From IMG/VR virus record IMGVR_UViG_3300045988_004451, positions 1 through 6,322 of that record: a stretch of 6,322 nucleotides of DNA. One strand, given 5' to 3'. Under the pieces are notes generated by a model, which was given only the letters and a program-made list of their open reading frames with translations, made no database searches and was not told the DNA's origin. The position numbers were made by a program, and so were the translations under genes. Below are positions 1-6,219 of the stretch, in pieces. The first letter of the stretch is position 1; every line of letters starts with the position of its first letter. The DNA comes from a virus.

Positions 1-77
1 ATGGCTTCTTACACTGGAATGTCCAATCTCCAGAACCACCCTCACCGTTCTGGATTTGATATTGGACGTAAAAATGC
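1..77. repeat. Terminal redundancy, left copy, identical to 6246..6322. It marks a circular genome with a 6245-nt unit.
   Basis: By direct comparison, the 77 nt atggcttcttacactggaatgtcc...ggacgtaaaaatgc at 1..77 are identical to 6246..6322. Confidence 0.97.
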
Positions 78-1868
78 TTTTACTGCTAAAGTTGGTGAGC
101 TTCTCCCTGTCTATTGGGATATTTCTATGCCAGGTGATAAGTATAAGTTTAATGTTGAGTATTTTACTCGTACCCAGCCCGTTGAAACTTCTGCTTATAC
201 CCGGTTGCGAGAGTATTTTGATTTCTATGCTGTTCCGTTGCGTCTTCTTTGGAAGTCTGCTCCTTCTGTGTTGACACAAATGCAGGACATCAATCAGATT
301 CAAGCTTTGTCTCTTACACAAAATTTGTCTCTGGGTACTTATCTCCCCTCTTTGCCTCTTAATGTTTGTATTTTCTGAGTACTGTTATTCAGCGTCTTAA
401 TGGAGGTTCTACCGATCCTAGTTCTTCATCTTCTTTGAAAAATCTTTTTGGTTTTTCTCGTTCAGATTTGTCTTTTAAGCTTTTGAATTATCTTGGTTAC
501 GGTAATTTTTTAAATTTTACTCCGTCTTCGGGCTCTCGTTGGTTTTCTACTTCTTTGAAAAATGATGATGATGCTTCTGACTATACTCAGCAATATATTC
601 AGAATAACTATGTGAATCTTTTCCCTCTTTTGGCTTATCAAAAGATTTATCAGGATTTTTTCCGTTGGTCTCAATGGGAGAATTCAAATCCTTCTTCTTA
701 TAATGTGGATTATTATTCCGGAATTTCGCCGTTGTTGTTATCCTCTATTCCTGAGGGTTCTAATGATTATTGGAAATCTGATACAATGTTTGACCTTAAA
801 TATTGTAACTGGAACAAGGATATGTTGATGGGTGTTCTTCCGAATTCTCAGTTTGGCGATGTTGCTGTGATTGATATTTCGAGTTCTGACGGTCCTATTC
901 CTAATTCTGTAGTATTAAAAGCTCCAAAAGGTAATGCTTCTTCTGAGGTTGTTACTACGGCTTCTTATAATGCTCCTCTTACTCCGTTATCTTTTGCTGC
1001 AAATTCTGCTTCTTCAACTAATGTTATTCCCAGTGGTTCTACTCTTCAAGTTAATCTTTCTAATTTGCAGAGTCAATTTACTGTACTTGCTCTTCGTCAA
1101 GCAGAAGCGCTCCAACGTTGGAAGGAAATCAGTCAGTCCGGTGATTCTGATTATCGTGAACAAATTCGTAAACATTTTGGCGTGAACTTGCCTCAAGCTC
1201 TCTCTAATATGTGCACCTATATCGGTGGTATTTCCCGTAATCTTGATATCAGTGAGGTTGTAAATAATAACCTTGCTTCTGAAAATAATGCTGCTGTTAT
1301 TGCTGGTAAAGGTGTCGGCACTGGTAATGGTTCATTTACTTACACAACTAACGAGCATTGTGTCGTTATGTGTATTTATCATGCCGTTCCTTTGCTTGAC
1401 TATACGATTACCGGACAAGACGGTCAGTTACTTGTAACTGATGCTGAGTCCCTCCCGATTCCGGAGTTTGATAATATTGGTATGGAAGTTCTTCCTATGA
1501 CACAGATTTTTAACTCTTCGCTTGCTACTGCTTTCAATTTGTTTAACGCTGGATATAATCCTCGCTATTTTAATTGGAAAACCAAGCTTGATGTTATCAA
1601 CGGTGCGTTCACTACTACTCTCAAGTCTTGGGTTTCTCCTGTTACTGAATCTTTGCTTTCTGGTTGGGCTCGCTTTGGTGGTTCTACTCCTGATTCAACG
1701 ACTAAGGTTGCTTTGAATTATAAGTTCTTCAAGGTTAGCCCCTCTGTTCTTGACCCTATTTTCGGTGTTAATGCTGATTCTACTTGGGACACTGACCAAC
1801 TTTTGATAAACTCTTATATTGGTTGCTATGTTGCCCGTAATTTGTCTCGTGACGGTGTACCTTACTAA
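1..1868 (+). CDS. VP1: Major capsid protein VP1 (phiX174 F-like jelly-roll). It is split across two frames, frame 1 at 1..378 and frame 3 at 363/366..1868, and needs a -1 shift or a 1-nt correction at about 363..375.
   Basis: The N-terminal 125 aa (SGFDIGRKNAFTAKVGELLPVYWDISMPGDKYKF..FTRTQPVETSAYTRLREYFDFYAVPLRLLW) is the conserved Microviridae VP1 N-terminal block as I recall it. The 500-aa continuation gives a combined length of about 620 aa, typical for Alpavirinae-like VP1. T-ending codon bias is strong in both segments. The frames overlap only between the frame-3 TAA at 360-362 and the frame-1 TGA at 376-378. Confidence 0.9.
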
Positions 1869-1882
1869 ACCTTGTTTTAATT

Positions 1883-2365
1883 ATGATTGGAAAATTTAAT
1901 AATTTGAATAGTTTGGAACAAGGTTCCGGACTTATTCCCAATGTTGGGCCGGATGCTTTTGCAGTTGCTTCCGAGTTTGATTCTACTGAGGAACTTCGTG
2001 TTGAAATCGATGAGTCTGATGAAACTCGTCCGGTTCGTTATACTTCTGATGTTCGTTTGATTCTTCATACCAAGGACTTGGCTTCCCGTGCTGGTCTTAC
2101 TATTGCTTCTAAGTTTGGTCAAAGTAAACAGACCGTTTCTCAGATTCAACAGCTTATGGATTTAATGTCTGATAATGACCTTTTATCTACGGTTCGTTCT
2201 CGGTATGTCCAGTCTCCCTCTGAAGTTATTGCTTGGTCAAAAGAGCTTATTGCTCGTGCTGAAGCTCTTAATCGTGAAGCTCAATTTTTGGTTGATGCTG
2301 AAACTGCTAAACAAGAAGCAGAAAAAGCGGCTGCTGCTTCCGCTGATACTGCTTCCTCTGAGTAA
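1883..2365 (+). CDS. Hypothetical 160-aa acidic protein, possibly an internal scaffolding protein (VP3-like) given its position and composition.
   Basis: ATG at 1883 and TAA at 2363-2365. It shares the T-ending codon bias of the structural genes. The C-terminal part is acidic and Ala-rich and looks helical (AEALNREAQFLVDAETAKQEAEKAAAASADTASSE). It lies between VP1 and VP2, and its stop overlaps the VP2 start (TAATG). I recognise no family motif. Confidence 0.7.
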   Translation: MIGKFNNLNSLEQGSGLIPNVGPDAFAVASEFDSTEELRVEIDESDETRPVRYTSDVRLILHTKDLASRAGLTIASKFGQSKQTVSQIQQLMDLMSDNDLLSTVRSRYVQSPSEVIAWSKELIARAEALNREAQFLVDAETAKQEAEKAAAASADTASSE

Positions 2366-3501
2366 TGGGTCTTCTTGGTTCAATCGCTGGTGGTCTCCTT
2401 GGTGTTGGTTCTTCTGCGATTCAAAATTCGCAGAATAGACAGAATGTCCGGGAGACCAATCAGATGAATTATAAGATAAATCAGATGAATAACCAGTTTA
2501 ACGAGCGTATGGCAATGCAGCAGCGCGATTTCCAGGAAAATATGTGGAATAAGGAGAATGAGTATAATACTGCCTCCGCGCAACGCCAACGCCTCGAAGA
2601 AGCTGGTTTAAACCCTTATCTGATGATGAATGGTGGTTCTGCTGGTACTGCTCAATCTGTTGGTTCTGGTGCTTCTGCTCAATCTGCAGGTTCTGCTGTT
2701 ATGCAACCTTTTCAGGCTGATTACTCAGGCATTGGTTCTTCTATTGGTAATATTTTTCAATATGAGCTTATGCAATCTGAAAAGTCTCAATTGCAAGGTG
2801 CCAGGCAGCTTGCCGATGCCAAGGCTATGGAAGTCCTTTCTAATATTGATTGGGGTAAACTTTCTGACGAAACTCGTAATTTTTTGAAATCTACCGGCTT
2901 GGCACGTGCCCAGCTTGGTTATGCCAAGGAGCAACAGGAAGTTGACAATATGGCAATGACTGGTCTTGTTATGCGTGCTCAGCGTTCTGGTATGCTTCTT
3001 GATAATGAGGCTAAAGGCATTATGAACCAGTATCTTGACCAACAACAGCAATTAGATTTAAATGTTAAGGCTGCGGACTACTATCAGCGTATGTCAGCTG
3101 GTTATCTATCTTATGCTGAAGCTAAAAAAGCTTTAGCTGAGGAAGCTTTGGCTGCTGCTCGTACTCGTGGTCAGAATATTTCTAATAAGGTTGCGGACCG
3201 TATTGCTGAATCTCAAATTGCTGCTAATATTGCAGCTAATGAGTCTGCCGCTGCTTATCATAATGAGGAGCTTAGATTGGGTCTTCCTCAAGATAATGCT
3301 CGTAGTAAGAATATTGAAGAATGGTATCGCGCTAGGAATGAGAAGAAAAGGTATCAGTATTTTGATGCTGATAAATGGGTTGATTATGGAACTAGTATTG
3401 GTAATACTATAGGTAATTTCTTACCTCGTAGAGTCTTTTCCAAATCTTTTTCTCGTTCTATTAATAGTAATACTAATTCTAATTATAATTATAGTCATTA
3501 G
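2365..3501 (+). CDS. VP2: VP2 minor capsid / DNA pilot protein (phiX174 H analogue).
   Basis: It has a Gly-rich hydrophobic N-terminus (MGLLGSIAGGLLGVGSSAI). It carries the block NMWNKENEYNTASAQRQRLEEAGLNPYLMM, which I recall as characteristic of gokusho/alpavirus VP2. The central part is long, Ala/Gln-rich and looks helical, and the protein is 378 aa. ATG at 2365 and TAG at 3499-3501. Confidence 0.85.
   Translation: MGLLGSIAGGLLGVGSSAIQNSQNRQNVRETNQMNYKINQMNNQFNERMAMQQRDFQENMWNKENEYNTASAQRQRLEEAGLNPYLMMNGGSAGTAQSVGSGASAQSAGSAVMQPFQADYSGIGSSIGNIFQYELMQSEKSQLQGARQLADAKAMEVLSNIDWGKLSDETRNFLKSTGLARAQLGYAKEQQEVDNMAMTGLVMRAQRSGMLLDNEAKGIMNQYLDQQQQLDLNVKAADYYQRMSAGYLSYAEAKKALAEEALAAARTRGQNISNKVADRIAESQIAANIAANESAAAYHNEELRLGLPQDNARSKNIEEWYRARNEKKRYQYFDADKWVDYGTSIGNTIGNFLPRRVFSKSFSRSINSNTNSNYNYSH
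2650..2703 (+). repeat. Imperfect in-frame 27-nt tandem duplication inside VP2 (AQSVGSGAS / AQSAGSAVM).
   Basis: gctcaatctgttggttctggtgcttct (2650..2676) compared with gctcaatctgcaggttctgctgttatg (2677..2703). The first 10 nt and the ggttctg core are identical, about 20/27 matches by hand alignment. The units start on codon boundaries. Confidence 0.6.
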
Positions 3502-3521
3502 TATTTTTTTATATTACATTT

Positions 3522-3552
3522 ACCCGGCCGTAGTGATACGTGTCGGGTTTTT
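3522..3552 (+). terminator. Rho-independent terminator downstream of VP2.
   Basis: ACCCGGCCGTA-GTGA-TACG(T)GTCGGGT forms an 11-bp stem with one G:U pair and one bulged T at 3541. The loop is a GNRA-type GUGA tetraloop (3533-3536). A TTTTT run follows at 3548-3552. The element begins 21 nt after the VP2 stop. Confidence 0.75.
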
Positions 3553-3573
3553 GTGTTTGGAGTAACTTCTGGC

Positions 3574-3643
3574 AACCGCGCGAAGCGTGGTTATACACCT
3601 ACTGAATTTCGGGACGTTAGGACTGAAATCAGAGCCGAAGGCT
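3574..3643 (+). promoter_or_regulatory. Three adjacent hairpins on the virion strand: 3574..3592 (containing GCGAAGC), 3602..3632, and 3633..3643 (AGCC-GAA-GGCT). Candidate single-strand initiation site or complementary-strand origin.
   Basis: Hand-folded pairings. AACCGCGC/GCGTGGTT gives 8 bp with one G:T around a GAA loop (3582-3584). CTGA(A)TTTCGG/CTGAAATCAG gives about 10 bp with one bulge. AGCC/GGCT gives 4 bp around GAA (3637-3639). No ORF is present on either strand, and the composition is more GC-rich than the coding regions. Confidence 0.5.
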
Positions 3644-3744
3644 ATAGTACTGCCTTCCTAAAAGCTTGATGTTTGCAACGCGTAAGCAGTCTCCCGGAAA
3701 TCTTTTCTCTTCCATCGCCGCTATACCCCTAAAAATATTATTTT

Positions 3745-3774
3745 GACGAAGTCTACATGAGTTTGCCCGAAGGG
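3745..3774 (+). promoter_or_regulatory. Two more C-GAA-G mini-hairpins: GAC-GAA-GTC (3745..3753) and CCC-GAA-GGG (3766..3774).
   Basis: Read directly from the sequence. Each has a 3-bp stem closing a GAA triloop with a C:G closing pair, the same architecture as at 3580-3586 and 3635-3641. Confidence 0.45.
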
Positions 3775-3798
3775 AAAGCGATTTACCTCATCGCTTTC
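3774..3798 (+). promoter_or_regulatory. Perfect 9-bp stem with a 7-nt loop: GAAAGCGAT-ttacctc-ATCGCTTTC. Function unknown; it could be an origin or Rep-recognition element or an RNA structure.
   Basis: GAAAGCGAT (3774-3782) is the exact reverse complement of ATCGCTTTC (3790-3798). No T-run follows, so it is not a canonical terminator. Confidence 0.5.
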
Positions 3799-3886
3799 AG
3801 TACCTTCTTGTCTTATATACGCAAACTCACAGACCCGCCTACAACTCCTTCAGCCTTCATTTTTTGTGTTAAAAGGTGTTTATATA

Positions 3887-3919
3887 TTTGTTCTTTTCAA
3901 ATTCTTATTTATACTTTTG
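3887..3919 (+). promoter_or_regulatory. Candidate Bacteroidota-type promoter, with a -33 TTTG and a -7 TAnnTTTG.
   Basis: TTTG at 3887-3890, a 21-nt spacer, then TACTTTTG at 3912-3919 fits the reported Bacteroides consensus TTTG-N19-21-TAnnTTTG. It lies about 45 nt upstream of the first ORF after the noncoding region (ATG 3964). Caveat: the region is T-rich, so chance matches are likely. A second TAnnTTTG (TATATTTG, 3883-3890) has a poorly spaced -33. Confidence 0.3.
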
Positions 3920-3963
3920 CCATGTTTTTAAAAAATCAATGTCTAATTAAAATTTTAAATGTT

Positions 3964-4140
3964 ATGGAAAAGTTTTATTTGTGTTCTATTCAATCTAAAA
4001 AAAATCCTGGTCAGAATGAAACTGTTCTTGTTCCGGTTGATGAAGTTTCTGTTTTTGTCTCTTCGGTCCTTAACTCGGATTGCTTACTCATTTTTTCTGA
4101 TTGTTCAACTTTTAATTCGAAATCCAACAATGAAAAGTGA
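3964..4140 (+). CDS. Hypothetical 58-aa protein.
   Basis: ATG at 3964 and TGA at 4138-4140. T-ending codon bias matches the other genes (ttt tat ttg tgt tct att ... gtt ctt gtt ccg gtt gat). The overlapping hydrophobic +1-frame ORF (3959..) behaves like the usual T-in-middle shadow frame, which supports this frame as the real one. No motif recognised. Confidence 0.5.
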   Translation: MEKFYLCSIQSKKNPGQNETVLVPVDEVSVFVSSVLNSDCLLIFSDCSTFNSKSNNEK

Positions 4141-4219
4141 AACTAAATCTAAAATTTGGTCTGCAATTATTGCAGCTGCTGTTAGTCTTCTTACGTCTAT
4201 TGCTCAAATATTTTCGTAA
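4130..4219 (+). CDS. 29-aa single-pass membrane peptide (MKSETKSKIWSAIIAAAVSLLTSIAQIFS). Candidate holin-like or lysis accessory peptide.
   Basis: ATG at 4130 and TAA at 4217-4219. The N-terminus is charged and followed by one hydrophobic segment of about 20 residues. T-ending codons are used. It overlaps the end of the upstream ORF by 11 nt and ends 3 nt before the peptidase ATG. Confidence 0.5.
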   Translation: MKSETKSKIWSAIIAAAVSLLTSIAQIFS

Positions 4220-4222
4220 GTC

Positions 4223-4531
4223 ATGAATCCCACATTAATGAAATTCATTGCATGGCTTCTGTTTCGGAATGTTCATTTCACCGTTACTTCCGCTCTTCGT
4301 ACTAAGGAACAAAACGATGCCTGTAAAGGGTCTCCTAATTCGCAGCATTTGACTGGTGATGCTATTGACTTGAAGCCTGTCGGTCTTTCTGTTGATGATT
4401 TTATTTCGCTGGTTAAGAGTTCTCCTTTTTCCTTTGACCAGTTAATAAAATATCGCACGTTTGTTCATGTTTCTTTTGCGCGTGTTCGTAGACCTCGCCA
4501 AATGGAATTAGATTTTACTAATAGAAAATGA
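4223..4531 (+). CDS. Zinc D-Ala-D-Ala carboxypeptidase-like / Peptidase_M15 (LAS superfamily) cell-wall hydrolase, a putative endolysin.
   Basis: SQHLTGDAID (nt 4340-4369) fits the M15_3/VanY-type S-x-H-x-x-G-x-A-x-D zinc-binding motif. FVHVS (His codon 4466-4468) supplies the third ligand, as in the family's vHvd block. An upstream VTSALRT..N block lies where the family has SgyR...N. The protein is 102 aa with no signal peptide. Its TGA overlaps the VP4 ATG (ATGA at 4528-4531). Confidence 0.8.
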   Translation: MNPTLMKFIAWLLFRNVHFTVTSALRTKEQNDACKGSPNSQHLTGDAIDLKPVGLSVDDFISLVKSSPFSFDQLIKYRTFVHVSFARVRRPRQMELDFTNRK

Positions 4532-6219
4532 TTACCAAGGAATTACAGAATAAGTTAGTAACTCGTTGCCAGAACCCTCGTACGGTTGTCAACAAATATA
4601 CGCATGAGCCTGTTGTTGTTCCCTGTGGCTCTTGCCCTTCTTGTATTCTTCGTCGTTCCGGTATTCAGACTAACCTGCTTACTTCTTATTCTACTCAGTT
4701 TCGTTATGTATACTTTGTTACTCTTACTTATGCTCCTTGCTTTCTTCCTACTTTGGAAGTTTCGGTTGTTGAAGCTTGTACGGATGATATTGCGGATGTT
4801 TCCGTTATTCCCGATATCAATGACTTGGATGTTAGTGACCCTAATACTTATTTGTTTGGTTTTCGCAGCGTTCCTCGTTCCGCTTCTGTTAAGTTAAAGA
4901 ATTCTACTGTCGAGCGTACATTTAGAGACCCTGATGTAGTATTTTCCTATCCTATGACTCCCAAGGATTTATTATCTATTCTTAGCAAAGTTAAGCATAA
5001 TGTTCCGAATAGAATTCCTTATGTTTGTAATCGTGACCTTGACTTGTTTTTAAAACGTTTAAGAAGTTACTACCCCGATGAAAAATTACGTTACTACGCT
5101 GTATCAGAGTATGGACCCACGAGTTACCGCCCGCATTGGCATTTGTTATTGTTTTCCAATTCCGAGCGATTCTCGCAAACTGTTCTTGAAAATGTATCTA
5201 AAGCTTGGTCTTACGGACGTTGTGATGCGTCACTGTCGCGAGGATTCGCAGCACCGTATGTTGCGTCGTATGTTAATAGCTTTGTCTCTTTACCCGACTT
5301 TTATGTTCAAATGCCAAAAGTGGTGCGACCTAAATCCTTCCATTCCATTGGATTTACGGAATCAAATCTCTTTCCTCGAAAGGTACGAATTGCCGAAATT
5401 GATGAAGTTGTCGATAAGTGCCTTAATGGAGTCCGCGTTGAGCGCGATGGCTATTTTCGGACAGTTAAACCTTCATGGTCGTATCTCCTTCGATTATTCC
5501 CCAGATTTTCGGACTCTATTCGTCAATCTCCATCGAACGTTTACCAGCTACTTTCTGCTGCGTTCACAGCGCCCGAACGAGTCATTCGTAGCGGATGCGC
5601 TGATTTGACTTGTGACCCTTTTAATGAATCTTCCAAGCAAAGCATATTATCTTTTTGTAAACAATATTTAAATTATGTAGACAATTATGGAAAAAGAAAT
5701 GACAAACGAAATGTTTTCTCACCTAAAGCGAATTTACCGCATAGTGATATTCTCATTTTGTCTGAATGTCGTTTGTATGATGGTGCTGATTTGGAACCTG
5801 TTCATCGCACAACCCGATTATACCGCTTTTTTCTCGGAATTGCGAAATTTATACGAACATATTCATCAAACGGAGAATTCTTATGGGCCGGTAGCTCCTT
5901 TCCAGGATATGCCGGCAGCCGAGAGAGAGCTTTACGAGTCCTCTCGGAAAAGATAATCGGATTCTGGCGTCGTTACGATTATAATCGTCTTGTTGATTTT
6001 TATCAGACTTTGGAAGACTCTAATGATAAGGATTTGCTTGACTTTGAGCTTCGTAACTATTCTTTTCGATACGATAAGTCTGTCCTTGATAATGAAGTGC
6101 CTTATAAATCTCTCCCTCTTGTTCGTCGTTTGGCTGCTGCGTCATTGATGAAATGTCGAGATAAGGTCAAACACAAGAGGGTTAACGATTCATTTGGTAT
6201 TTTTTCTTATCAGGATTGA
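4528..6219 (+). CDS. VP4: VP4 replication initiation protein, an HUH rolling-circle endonuclease (phiX174 A-like).
   Basis: RCR motif 1 is FVTLTY (4714-4731). Motif 2 (HUH) is PHWHLLLF, with HWH at 5134-5142. Motif 3 has two tyrosines, YVASYVNS (Tyr codons 5257-5259 and 5269-5271), comparable to phiX174 A YVAKYVNK. There is an N-terminal Cys cluster, C-x18-C-x2-C-x2-C. The 563-aa length is typical of Alpavirinae-like VP4. Confidence 0.92.
   Translation: MITKELQNKLVTRCQNPRTVVNKYTHEPVVVPCGSCPSCILRRSGIQTNLLTSYSTQFRYVYFVTLTYAPCFLPTLEVSVVEACTDDIADVSVIPDINDLDVSDPNTYLFGFRSVPRSASVKLKNSTVERTFRDPDVVFSYPMTPKDLLSILSKVKHNVPNRIPYVCNRDLDLFLKRLRSYYPDEKLRYYAVSEYGPTSYRPHWHLLLFSNSERFSQTVLENVSKAWSYGRCDASLSRGFAAPYVASYVNSFVSLPDFYVQMPKVVRPKSFHSIGFTESNLFPRKVRIAEIDEVVDKCLNGVRVERDGYFRTVKPSWSYLLRLFPRFSDSIRQSPSNVYQLLSAAFTAPERVIRSGCADLTCDPFNESSKQSILSFCKQYLNYVDNYGKRNDKRNVFSPKANLPHSDILILSECRLYDGADLEPVHRTTRLYRFFLGIAKFIRTYSSNGEFLWAGSSFPGYAGSRERALRVLSEKIIGFWRRYDYNRLVDFYQTLEDSNDKDLLDFELRNYSFRYDKSVLDNEVPYKSLPLVRRLAAASLMKCRDKVKHKRVNDSFGIFSYQD

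Follow-up and report, generated by a model that had tools for sequence, protein, structure and literature searches.

The hairpin cluster in the intergenic region of this microvirus genome is probably a conserved cis-acting element that acts as folded single-stranded DNA (ssDNA) on the packaged, T-rich strand, and its 5′ domain, module A, is most likely a single-strand initiation signal serving as complementary-strand origin. We put the probability of this reading at roughly 0.55. The element is conserved and its helices covary; it is specific to one strand, recurs across microvirus lineages, carries loops of one chemistry, and is oriented in step with compositional polarity. Every ssDNA phage depends on its host to start the second strand. 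To our knowledge, the start signal is experimentally known for only a few coliphages, and we know of none defined for the abundant gut (Alpavirinae-like) microviruses; a literature search covering gut and Alpavirinae-like microviruses turned up no described origin, which is not proof of absence.

The intergenic region and its hairpins

The window, the whole 6,322-nt stretch of viral DNA analysed, has a non-coding region between the stop codon of the pilot gene (3501) and the next gene (3959). The first-pass annotation had described this region as ORF-free, and the description was upheld, as no ORF is conserved among relatives. The ORF at 3757-4140 was rejected as a gene, its length varying from 9 to 129 codons in relatives, and a coding role for the CDS that Dulem virus 257 has annotated as hypothetical was rejected on the same ground. 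Identity to Dulem virus 257 is 92.6% over 3519-3835 and 87.7% over the whole genome. Searching the window and five relatives, insert variants included, with the covariance models of Rfam 15 (E up to 1) returned nothing relevant, a tRNA/tmRNA scan found none, and a sigma-70 scan of 3502-3963 found no promoter, the host's promoter type likely being different and outside the scan's coverage.

In the window, the terminator-like hairpin is followed by module A, module B, a dif-like or promoter region, and then the genes. The hairpin, a putative terminator, is kept in relatives, where its pairs vary between G·T and G-C and between C-G and T-A. A terminator scan did not flag it because its stem is bulged, and we treat it as context outside the core element. 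Module A starts about 10 nt past this hairpin, and its end lies before the next promoter-like box. The features are as follows.

3522..3553, + strand: terminator-like hairpin, ACCCGGCCGTA-GTGA-TACG(T)GTCGGGT and then TTTTTG (MFE fold), directly after the pilot-protein stop codon
About 3558-3731, + strand: module A, multi-helix 5′ domain, TGGAGTAAC ... GCTATACCCC (nhmmer profile and alignment A4)
3570..3573, + strand: P0 5′ arm, YGGC, pairing with 3717-3720 (GCYG) and closing module A (RNAalifold consensus)
3574..3592, + strand: hp1, AACCGCGC-GAA-GCGTGGTT, 8-pair stem with a d(GCGNAGC) mini-hairpin cap
3602..3632, + strand: P2, bulged hairpin CTGA/TCAG plus TTTCGG/CTGAAA, with tandem G·A and C-GTTA-G (3615-3620) at the apex
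3633..3643, + strand: hp2, AGCC-GAA-GGCT, inner three pairs all covarying
3644..3655, + strand: unpaired block TATAGTACTGCC, columns invariant or nearly so in the A3 and A4 alignments
3669..3683, + strand: P4, weakly supported 4-pair hairpin AYGY-TTGCAAC-GCGT
3717..3720, + strand: P0 3′ arm, GCCG (RNAalifold consensus)
About 3741-3835, + strand: module B, 3′ domain, in the window's lineage only and always co-oriented with the genes
3745..3753, + strand: hp3, GAC-GAA-GTC
3758..3766, + strand: P6 5′ arm, TGAGTTTGC, long-range helix with 3821-3829 (GCAAACTCA)
3766..3774, + strand: hp4, CCC-GAA-GGG, with alternative partners for C3766 and G3774 in P6 and P8
3774..3798, + strand: P8, perfect 9-bp hairpin GAAAGCGAT-TTACCTC-ATCGCTTTC, 7-nt loop conserved
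3807..3820, + strand: unpaired block, conserved CTTGTCT, then a variable AT-rich spacer of about 7-8 nt, then invariant GCAAACTCACAGAC
3821..3829, + strand: P6 3′ arm, GCAAACTCA, within invariant block GCAAACTCACAGAC

All six hairpins proposed in the first-pass annotation were recovered where it had placed them. The 3774-3798 stem is a perfect 9 bp, as described; the 8-bp stem of hp1, correctly located at 3574-3592, is less than perfect, with 7 Watson-Crick pairs and one G·T (3578·3588). The span given for the cluster, 3574-3798, cuts through two separable modules that are differently distributed. CGAAG occurs five times on the + strand, four times in the cluster and once elsewhere (2595), which agrees with the earlier count; the copy at 2595 lacks complementary flanks. 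The supposed enrichment of the motif was not borne out: with both strands counted, 14 copies were observed against 11.7 expected, so genome-wide enrichment is absent. Clustering, in contrast, is real. The whole window holds four cGAAg hairpins with at least three Watson-Crick pairs on the + strand (3579-3774) and none on the − strand, while dinucleotide shuffles gave a mean of 0.25 and reached four in 0 of 2000. The real signal of the CGAAG motif is its strand-specific clustering with flanking complementarity. Additionally, a fifth loop of like type, C-GTTA-G (3615-3620), caps the 3602-3632 hairpin.

Covariation, loop chemistry and folding energy

The predicted conservation of the hairpins, with compensatory changes, held in about 120 distinct relatives. 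In alignment A4, which comprises 120 distinct module A sequences, 99.1% of the cells of 31 pairs are paired, compared with 30-41% when partners are slid as a control, and double changes occur at 9 pairs. The proposed + strand structure was likewise confirmed: it is specific to the + (T-rich) strand, as module A has 518 G·T but only 8 A·C pairs, and module A is therefore no symmetric duplex or cruciform site. The closing helix P0 is paired in 99.6% of cells, and its changes, all from G-C to G·T, are one-sided. No other part of the element is as conserved as hp1, which keeps G·T at 3578·3588 in 117 of 120 sequences and has a compensatory C-G to T-A change in 8. P2 shows double changes at five pairs, among them T-A to C-G (40 sequences) and C-G to G-C (57), and its apex varies between GTTA, GTA, GATA and a GAC-TCC-GTC extension. 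The hp2 stem is replaced in mar62, mar45 and mar40 by ATTCAC/GTGAAT, with a GAA or GTA loop. Changes in P4 are one-sided only (C-G to T·G), and its outer pair is unpaired in 15 of 120 sequences. The repeat G[CT]TATA[CG] occurs three times, each directly 3′ of a helix (3589-3599, 3640-3650 and 3719-3729), and the TATAGTACTGCC block (3644-3655) belongs to one of these copies.

Module B (alignment A5) has 23 pairs with 99.0% of cells paired and double changes at 6 pairs; slid-partner controls for the two modules together gave 27-41%. Its G·T and A·C counts are about equal. The stem of hp3 is GGC/GCC in 59 sequences, GAC/GTC in 28 and GGT/ACC in 10, with a GAA loop in about 110 of 116. The hp4 loop is GAA (72), GTA (19) or GGA (9), and its stem has the compensatory forms TCC..GGA and CCT..AGG. 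P8 carries G-C to T-A in 44 of 116 sequences and A-T to G-C in 2, and retains the TTACCTC loop in 101 of 116. Both arms of P6 are almost invariant, with a single compensatory change (G-C to A-T, in contig L076), and P6 could alternatively be a conserved inverted repeat acting as double-stranded DNA.

C-GAA-G itself, put forward as the repeated unit, did not survive the comparison. The hp1 loop is GTA in 74 of 120 sequences, GAA in 33, GCA in 7 and GGA in 3; that of hp2 is GTTA in 50 of 120, GTA in 23, GTCA in 14, GAA in 12 and GCCA in 7. What is conserved is cG(N)NAg: a C-G pair closes a G-N-A or G-N-N-A loop whose middle bases are free, and tri- and tetraloops interchange among relatives. Among the hp2 cGNNAg tetraloops, 71 of 78 are non-GNRA (GTTA, GTCA, GCCA). 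GCGNAGC is present at hp1 in 117 of 120 sequences, and cG(N)NAg loops also cap P2, hp2, hp3 and hp4; these loops have C-G closure, G first, A last, 3-4 nt and any middle base, as in the mini-hairpin definition, with the full GCG..AGC context in hp1 only and different second pairs in the others. d(GCGNAGC) and d(GCGNNAGC), with any N, are extraordinarily stable DNA mini-hairpins that resist nucleases and bind SSB poorly (PMC13037366). Judged by sequence, the loops of the element are of this DNA mini-hairpin type. A match to the ssoA 'CS-6' motif TAGCGT within hp1 was discarded; it arises only when the unconstrained, free loop base is T, and is thus incidental.

The first-pass annotation had staked its proposal on folding energies better than those of shuffled sequence. 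This was the case for 3502-3963 (z −3.44), 3560-3810 (z −1.79) and module B (z −5.1 on the + strand; −6.25 on the − strand), but module A alone, at z 0.01 with DNA parameters, is indistinguishable from its shuffles, which by the annotation's own measure counts against that part. Folding energy was accordingly dropped as support for module A. In single-sequence MFE folds, hp2 and hp4 are displaced by competing pairings; relatives keep hp2 and hp4, and the competitors are not conserved there.

Distribution and strand orientation

The nhmmer profile of module A matched about 130 microvirus contigs. Two motifs of the element had 0 matches in 185,579 bacterial species-representative genomes, and a scan with the hp1 motif found 45-62 viral contigs and 0 bacterial genomes. 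Matches of a 22-nt motif in metagenomes outside microviruses numbered about 9 and were chance occurrences within unrelated coding DNA. An origin as host-derived sequence, a host gene fragment or an attP copy of a host RNA gene was rejected on the absence of bacterial matches.

Module A is common to the window phage and mar45 despite the distance of their proteins (Rep 23% identity over 98 aa, capsid 27% over 92 aa), and both lineages contain the same three module subtypes. The comparison indicates that module A is portable between very distant microvirus lineages. Module B is present in 117 of 119 contigs of the window's lineage, where Rep has 563 aa, and in 0 of 9 of the other, where Rep has roughly 400 aa. 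Some relatives carry an insert of roughly 130 nt with a T-loop-like GGTTCAAGTCC.

Orientation follows base composition. In 119 contigs, T3 > A3 and module A points the same way as the genes; the other 9 have A3 > T3 and a module A that runs opposite to all genes. The rule has 0 exceptions in 128. Module A thus occupies the T-rich strand in 128 of 128 contigs, including the lineage with all genes on the other strand. At four-fold sites read on the module A strand, the 119- and 9-contig groups differ little in composition and have T at.64 and.60, C at.16 and.16, A at.12 and.12, and G at.08 and.12, respectively. T-richness at synonymous sites is a known ssDNA phage signature (PMC3278643), and we infer that the T-rich strand is the packaged strand in every lineage, the mar45 clade included. 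That clade, comprising mar45, mar40, Dulem 201/214, Tortoise microvirus 13 and an Antarctic microvirus, has the gene order capsid-pilot-Rep and 56-66% A at four-fold sites of the coding strand, and its A/purine-rich coding strand is a deep trait. Its polarity could alternatively reflect selection for purine-rich mRNA (PMC13323073); if so, it is the coding strand that would be packaged there, with module A on the strand left out of the virion. The association of orientation with composition may represent as few as one independent event; later exchanges through homologous recombination inside module A would preserve orientation automatically.

A candidate complementary-strand origin and its alternatives

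In the mechanism we propose, ssDNA entering the cell would become coated with SSB, and the very stable mini-hairpins would remain folded and SSB-free. They would present the adjoining conserved single-stranded blocks to a host priming enzyme, either a DnaG-type primase or RNA polymerase, which would lay the primer for conversion of ssDNA to the replicative form. Both the exclusion of SSB and priming at the element are deduced by analogy. Such an origin would need host factors only, so module A could move between unrelated microviruses, and it would always have to occupy the packaged strand. Module B is a second structured element, specific to its lineage, and may be part two of the same origin, a Rep-dependent viral-strand origin or an accessory of the dif-like attachment site close by. 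The presence of module A in two lineages and its orientation on the T-rich strand favour a host-factor-dependent job on packaged ssDNA, most plausibly that of a complementary-strand origin. Several observations stand against this reading. Many helices depend on G·T, some of it near-invariant, and RNA tolerates G·T better than DNA; with DNA parameters, module A folds no more stably than its shuffles; the element has no sequence homology to the origins of G4 and alpha3; and one contig, L067, has module B with module A reduced to its 3′ tail.

Among the closest parallels are the DnaG-dependent complementary-strand origins of G4, St-1, alpha3 and phiK (Bullavirinae), which likewise are non-coding, intergenic and formed by several hairpins on virion-strand ssDNA. 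The first-pass annotation had placed related mini-hairpins at the origins of both phiX174 and G4. This is right for G4, with GCGAAAGC at its complementary-strand primer site, whereas CCCCGAAGGGG of phiX174 adjoins the viral-strand origin. In the G4 record, GGCGAAAGCC lies inside the annotated primer site (3970-3997), and in that of alpha3, GGCGTTAGCC lies in the G-H intergenic region; the same mini-hairpin motif has been noted at both places (PMC13037366). A cG(N)NAg mini-hairpin is thus common to the element and these phages; in G4 it is found at the priming site or close to it, and in alpha3 in the G-H intergenic region. GTTA, the commonest hp2 loop, is also found in the G4/alpha3-type motif, and CTACTG stands 3′ of hp1 as it does 3′ of G4 hairpin I. 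Of the features of G4-type origins, the element has the intergenic, non-coding location and a GCG(N)NAGC-type mini-hairpin, but homology to the G4/St-1/alpha3 origins was not found: searching G4 and alpha3 with the nhmmer profiles of the two modules gave chance matches only (E 2-8), none in the origins. It is also larger, at about 175 nt (about 280 with module B), forms a closed multi-helix domain with at least five mini-hairpin loops instead of one, and belongs to a phage whose host is presumably Bacteroidales; its priming role is that of a candidate.

Other systems resemble the element in part. The primosome assembly site of phiX174, a hairpin between F and G, performs the task proposed here, complementary-strand start on SSB-coated virion DNA (PMC9865509). 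It differs in being a single hairpin of about 55 nt that is read by n′/PriA and not defined by GNA loops. In the intergenic region of the filamentous phages M13/f1, RNA polymerase reads the hairpins of the minus-strand origin, which has the plus origin and the packaging signal as neighbours. In the window, cis elements are similarly clustered in one structured intergenic region, with a different fold and host and with no sigma-70-type promoter mimic seen by a scan that may not cover the host's promoter type. RSF1010 ssiA/ssiB and ssoA-type origins are, like the element, orientation-dependent folded ssDNA of 40-300 nt read by host or primase, and module A resembles sso cassettes in being exchangeable between unrelated replicons. 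The CCGAAGG mini-hairpin of ssiA (PMC13037366) is comparable to CCCGAAGGG of hp4, but ssiA has no homology to the element and its primase is plasmid-encoded. Intergenic hairpins of the uncultured reekeekee- and roodoodoo-microviruses were proposed as negative-strand origins from conservation and compensatory substitutions (PMC9865509). Those candidates belong to other clades and consist of one or two simple hairpins, whereas the element is a bipartite domain that spans about 280 nt, has a defined loop chemistry, moves across lineages and is linked to strand polarity. Early promoters of phage N4 are ssDNA hairpins with a 5-bp stem and a GGA or GAA triloop read by the virion RNA polymerase (PMC13037366). 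They are also cGNAg-type mini-hairpins, extruded as ssDNA and serving as polymerase recognition points; N4, however, is a dsDNA phage, and its reader is a phage enzyme absent from microviruses.

Module A, or A and B together, could instead be a structured RNA, either a 3′ UTR element by which the capsid-pilot mRNA is stabilised or processed, or a non-coding RNA with transcription of its own, which we consider unlikely. The 518 G·U-type pairs, some of them invariant, would suit RNA, as would the multi-helix junction closed by a long-range helix (RNAalifold) and the T-loop-like sequence of the insert. RNA parameters also recover P0, P1 and P2 in module A and give it a better z (−1.57 against 0.01), and occurrence in both orientations relative to genes is what a free-standing gene would show. 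The loops, however, are mostly GNA triloops and non-GNRA GNNA tetraloops, atypical of RNA, and the Rfam search had no match even with insert variants. A start so close to the terminator-like hairpin leaves no space in the window's lineage for a promoter of module A's own, and in the other lineage module A is antisense to every gene, so that a single RNA mechanism for both needs extra assumptions. The RNA explanation also leaves the tracking of compositional polarity unaccounted for.

A viral-strand origin or packaging site, located mainly in module B, seems quite unlikely. CTTGTCT, the AT-rich spacer and GCAAACTCACAGAC, flanked by the inverted repeat TGAGTTTGC/GCAAACTCA, would be bound and nicked by the Rep of the lineage, with the hairpins aiding extrusion or presentation. 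Module B is indeed confined to the lineage with the 563-aa Rep, co-oriented with its genes and absent where Rep has roughly 400 aa; its two strands fold equally well, with G·T about equal to A·C, which suits a duplex or cruciform site. The phiX174 origin is laid out as conserved, variable AT-rich and conserved parts; module B repeats this over about 30 nt, and the cGAAg hairpin CCCCGAAGGGG lies directly beside that origin. The likeness was not upheld by alignment: the 30-nt phiX174 origin CAACTTGATATTAATAACACTATAGACCAC aligned best at 3390-3412, outside module B, and 53 of 300 shuffled queries scored as well, so the match to the window is not significant. Moreover, hp3, hp4 and P8 covary as hairpins, which implies that single-stranded or extruded structure matters, and module A, with two of the four mini-hairpins and a mobility independent of Rep type, would remain unexplained. 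Very improbable is an accessory arm of an attachment site, in which folded ssDNA or duplex would assist XerC/D-type recombinases of the host in inserting the phage into a dif-like site, the route known from CTX-phi. Close relatives do occur as prophages in metagenome contigs L136 (34.8 kb) and L160 (12.1 kb), with junctions about 100 nt 3′ of module B flanked by the imperfect direct repeat TTATATTAAACATnnTCCTGATATTG, and known Bacteroidales microvirus proviruses are flanked by dif-like sites, some with a second inverted copy (PMC3091885). The crossover, however, falls outside both modules, the junction sequence is absent from the window and most relatives, which still have modules A and B, and the lineage with inverted module A entirely lacks module B.

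Under the complementary-strand origin reading, the element is a concrete, alignable and testable candidate with a structural grammar of stems capped by cG(N)NAg mini-hairpins, and can be used as a search model in annotating microvirus genomes. Its mobility between unrelated phages suggests that such origins are exchanged as cassettes, like sso elements among plasmids. More tentatively, and at somewhat less than even odds, module A may be a mobile 'second-strand origin cassette', read by the host and marking which strand is packaged; in the mar45 clade, that strand would be antisense to every gene. A literature search for negative-sense or purine-rich microviruses found none, though this does not prove absence. 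As a possible marker of the packaged strand, the element would, if this is true, reveal a microvirus clade with antisense genomes; the mar45 clade would be the first negative-sense Microviridae, and the strand flip might be a way of meeting a need for purine-rich mRNA under the T-enriching mutation pressure that acts on packaged ssDNA.

Hairpins in the gene-free region of the genome

The window is a microvirus genome, complete or nearly so, with every gene on the + strand.

Genes and gene-free stretch of the window
1-378 plus 366-1868, +, capsid, with a frame break between the parts
1883-2365, +, unassigned ORF
2365-3501, +, DNA pilot protein
3502-3958, gene-free stretch
3959-4219, +, small ORF
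4223-4531, +, M15 peptidase
4528-6219, +, Rep

This order matches that of the Bacteroidales proviruses termed Alpavirinae, in which Rep, capsid and pilot genes are followed by a non-coding region (PMC3091885). Among GenBank records, "Dulem" and "bajarodmic" viruses from faeces come closest (82-88% identity). The major capsid gene runs in two frames, both halves of which match the F-protein family. The break (366-378) sits in an indel-rich variable stretch where several gaps differ among relatives, and may be an artefact of sequencing or assembly, a genuine frameshift or the mark of a defective genome.

The first-pass annotation listed six hairpins in the gene-free region, and all six were found in place, although the 8 pairs of the first include one G·T. 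It had also described CGAAG as clustered and always flanked by complementary bases. Indeed, 4 of the 5 + strand copies lie within 3581-3772; the fifth (2595), however, lacks complementary flanks. The supposed enrichment disappeared on proper counting, as 5 copies on the + strand and 9 on the - strand give a total of 14, unremarkable against 11.7 expected. The significant feature is narrower, namely the + strand clustering of cGAAg hairpins: with at least three Watson-Crick pairs required, four occur on the + strand, all inside 200 nt, and none on the - strand, while shuffled sequences carried 0.25 on average and 0 of 2000 reached four. An additional loop of the family, C-GTTA-G (3615-3620), missed in the original list, caps the 3602-3632 hairpin. 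Folding energy departed from shuffled sequence over the whole gene-free stretch (z = -3.44) and most clearly in its 3' part (z = -5.1), but not in its 5' part (z = 0.01); the value for 3560-3810 was -1.79. In the single-sequence minimum-free-energy fold, the second and fourth mini-hairpins (hp2 and hp4) were displaced by local competitor pairings.

A two-module element under structural selection

The hairpins belong to a folded element with two halves, module A (~3558-3731) and module B (~3741-3835).

Parts of modules A and B
3570-3573 with 3717-3720, +, closing helix of module A (P0), four pairs
3574-3592, +, mini-hairpin hp1
3602-3632, +, hairpin P2, bulged, with tandem G·A and a cGNNAg cap
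3633-3643, +, mini-hairpin hp2
Remainder of module A, +, invariant single-stranded block TATAGTACTGCC, weak hairpin P4, variable stretch
3745-3753, +, mini-hairpin hp3 of module B
3766-3774, +, mini-hairpin hp4, enclosed by the long-range helix TGAGTTTGC/GCAAACTCA
3774-3798, +, 9-bp hairpin P8
Unpaired block of module B, +, CTTGTCT and an AT-rich spacer, then invariant GCAAACTCACAGAC

Identity to Dulem virus 257 is 92.6% over the intergenic stretch 3519-3835, compared with 87.7% for the genome overall, and this stretch has matches in much more distant microviruses as well. In IMG/VR and gut metagenomes, motif scans and profile searches located the element in about 130 non-identical microvirus-sized contigs. 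It is restricted to viruses: in 185,579 species genomes of bacteria and archaea, two motif scans gave no match, and the few non-viral metagenome matches were chance matches inside coding DNA. No Rfam family matched the region. A 127-codon ORF starting at 3757 ends after 9-129 codons in relatives; the coding reading was therefore rejected and the region is non-coding.

The structure of both modules is under selection. Among 120 distinct module A sequences, 99.1% of cells were paired over the 31 pairs counted, compared with 96.3% in column shuffles (0/500 reached the observed value) and 30-41% with slid partners. Module B behaved similarly (116 sequences, 23 pairs, 99.0%; column shuffles 95.6%, 0/500; slid partners 27-41%). 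The conservation with compensatory changes anticipated for relatives was borne out, with 9 pairs in module A and 6 in module B changed on both sides. In mar62, mar45 and mar40, hp2 is rebuilt as an unrelated six-pair stem, ATTCAC/GTGAAT, whose loop is still GAA or GTA.

C-GAA-G itself did not hold up as the conserved unit, because GAA varies among relatives in three of the four mini-hairpins. The hp1 loops (n = 120) are GTA (74), GAA (33), GCA (7) and GGA (3); those of hp2 are GTTA (50), GTA (23), GTCA (14), GAA (12), GCCA (7), GTAA (5) and GCAA (2); and those of hp4 are GAA (72), GTA (19) and GGA (9). The hp3 loop is nearly always GAA. What is constrained is a C-G closing pair, a first G and a last A, separated by one or two bases that are free to vary. 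The same features define a class of exceptionally stable DNA mini-hairpins, GCGNAGC and GCGNNAGC, which are nuclease-resistant and bind SSB poorly (PMC13037366).

Some relatives carry a ~130-nt insert between the modules or alternative module A interiors, often bringing new cGAAg hairpins (for example GAGTC-GAA-GACTC and GCGC-GAA-GCGC). The insert, conserved as CTGTCGCTTGCGACCCC ... GGTTCAAGTCCGAAGG ... GTGATGAACGCAGTGAAGAACGCG, includes a T-loop-like GGTTCAAGTCC and further GAA hairpins, and has no Rfam match. It occurs in L004 (815-960), L022, L024 (shorter), L036, L043, L061, L062 and L100, and goes with a module A subtype, variant A', into an A-rich clade. In a third lineage (L074 and L008, Dulem virus 262; 4000-4236), only the module A ends are kept (GGAGTAAC..hp1..TATACACC and ..CCGTATATACCC), enclosing an unrelated hairpin set; module A thus resembles a conserved frame whose interior can be exchanged.

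Three direct repeats G[CT]TATA[CG] (3589-3599, 3640-3650 and 3719-3729) each start in a helix 3' arm (hp1, hp2 and P0, respectively) and extend into single-stranded DNA. TTA or CTA, initiation trinucleotides of some primases, occurs within them. L149 (900-1832) has two full inverted copies of both modules within 2.7 kb, probably an assembly fold-back at hairpins, and L083 and L110 each have two direct copies, from longer-than-unit or concatemeric assemblies. In L092 (~3660-3720 of a 9.5-kb contig), the first ~55 nt of a module A variant abut DNA resembling an efflux-pump gene, representing either an assembly chimera or a second type of integration junction inside the element.

Neighbouring sites and known single-strand start signals

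In the lineage of the window, the pilot gene is directly followed by a GC-rich hairpin and a T-run (3522-3553) that resemble an intrinsic terminator; a consensus terminator scan did not call this hairpin. Module A begins ~10 nt later. The element ends ~50 nt ahead of TATATTTG (3883-3890), which lies upstream of the next genes and fits the Bacteroidetes -7 promoter box TAnnTTTG; a TTTG lies ~20 nt further upstream, ahead of the 3959 gene. A box of this type supports a Bacteroidales host. There is no space for the element to have its own promoter. In two close relatives present as prophages and inserted at the same bacterial locus (L136, 34.8 kb; L160, 12.1 kb; metagenome), the phage-host junction lies ~100 nt downstream of module B (L136, 5845-6000; L160, reverse strand, ~1650-1760 and 7940-8150). 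These junctions carry an imperfect direct repeat, TTATATTAAACATnnTCCTGATATTG, which looks like a dif-like att site, in agreement with the model published for Bacteroidales microvirus proviruses (PMC3091885). The window itself lacks this junction sequence. Given this clustering of terminator-like hairpin, element, promoter-like box and relatives' junction, cis-acting sites of the genome seem to be gathered in the gene-free region, much like those of filamentous phages in their intergenic region.

The mini-hairpin motif is present in known ssDNA start signals (PMC13037366). The first-pass annotation had placed related motifs at the origins of G4 and phiX174. In the G4 record, GGCGAAAGCC does lie inside the annotated primer site (3970-3997), adjoining the annotated complementary-strand origin, but the cGAAg mini-hairpin of phiX174, CCCCGAAGGGG (4299-4345), lies beside the viral-strand origin, two bases after its 30 nt. 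The alpha3 record has GGCGTTAGCC in the G-H intergenic region, RSF1010 ssiA has CCGAAGG, and the ssDNA promoters of phage N4 carry GGA or GAA triloops (PMC13037366). A resemblance of module B to the phiX174 origin, seen by eye, failed when tested. CTACTG occurs nine bases after hp1 (3589-3604) and, in G4 (3975-4000), directly after hairpin I (with GCGAAAGC), where the primer starts; in the window its CTG forms the first three P2 pairs, nearly invariant in relatives. This likeness may be coincidence.

In function the element appears to resemble the origins of G4, St-1 and alpha3 as well as plasmid ssi/sso signals, but has no sequence in common with them and differs in size, closed multi-helix layout, number of mini-hairpins and exchange between phage lineages. 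In other uncultured clades of microviruses, similar comparative arguments have led to proposals of candidate negative-strand hairpins (PMC9865509). Our literature search retrieved no description of the element, nor of any origin for gut Alpavirinae-like phages.

Orientation of module A and the packaged strand

Module A helices contain 518 G·T but only 8 A·C pairs, indicating that it is the strand shown, rather than its complement, that folds in this way; a symmetric duplex site was thereby ruled out. Module B shows no such asymmetry (G·T 8, A·C 12), and both its strands fold equally well. Module B is missing from mar45, mar40 and at least 7 metagenome contigs, in which module A is found downstream of rep, on the other strand from all of the genes. 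Judged by protein identity (Rep 23% over 98 aa; capsid 27% over 92 aa), these phages are only remotely related to the window phage. All three module A subtypes (canonical, mar-type hp2, and variant A' with insert) occur in both lineages; hence module A has moved between them.

In the most informative result, orientation followed coding-strand composition without exception. In 119 contigs with the module co-oriented with the genes, third-position T is 0.47-0.61 and A 0.10-0.21, whereas in 9 with the module opposite, A is 0.40-0.51 and T 0.13-0.19. Read on the module A strand, four-fold sites are alike in the co-oriented and opposite groups (T.644/.602, C.158/.162, A.119/.115, G.080/.120). T-enrichment at synonymous sites is a recognised mark of ssDNA phages, ascribed to cytosine deamination in single strands (PMC3278643). 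The pattern is most simply read as module A keeping to the packaged strand in every case, regardless of gene direction, as a signal read on incoming ssDNA would require. The association could nevertheless rest on one inversion, with exchanges by recombination inside the module then keeping the orientation by default.

That module A, or both modules, acts as a structured RNA seems unlikely. RNA tolerates G·T pairs better, and some of those here are nearly invariant; in addition, the RNA-parameter fold of module A is slightly better than its DNA fold. However, the hp2 tetraloops are mostly non-GNRA, which would be unusual for a structured RNA, and keeping to the T-rich strand whatever the gene direction is unlike an mRNA element. 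The best-supported reading of module A is an ssDNA element that lies on the packaged strand, depends on orientation and is read by the host; most plausibly it would be the complementary-strand origin. Its mini-hairpins would remain folded in SSB-coated DNA and, so folded, could mark the place of priming. The analysis demonstrates that the module exists and is conserved, covaries, is specific to one strand, follows a loop rule, is confined to viruses, moves between unrelated phages and tracks compositional polarity, whereas the packaged strand of the mar45 clade, SSB exclusion and priming are inferred. Module B is a separate element bound to one lineage, and may be a second half of the origin, a Rep origin or an attachment-site accessory.

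In the mar45 clade, whose genes run capsid-pilot-Rep, the coding strand is extremely rich in A or in purines, a mirror image of ordinary microviruses (four-fold A 0.56-0.66, or A+G 0.75; T 0.06-0.18). Its members are mar45 (L073, MZ089791), mar40 (L007), L036, L075, L107, L113, L117, L141, L165, L174, L182, L183, L184, L185 and L187; module A, where present, lies on the opposite, T-rich strand. Four-fold A reaches 59-66% in Dulem 201, Dulem 214, Tortoise microvirus 13 and an Antarctic microvirus, and A plus G 75% in bajarodmic 680. A more distant relative (L186, capsid identity 28%) is T-rich as usual. Purine-rich coding is a deep trait of the clade. It might stem from selection for purine-rich mRNA (PMC13323073), in which case the coding strand would be the one packaged in this clade, and the interpretation of module A as an ssDNA signal would not hold for it. 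If module A instead marks the packaged strand, the genes of this clade may be antisense to it. A microvirus clade with genes antisense to the packaged strand would, if confirmed, be more surprising than the element itself.
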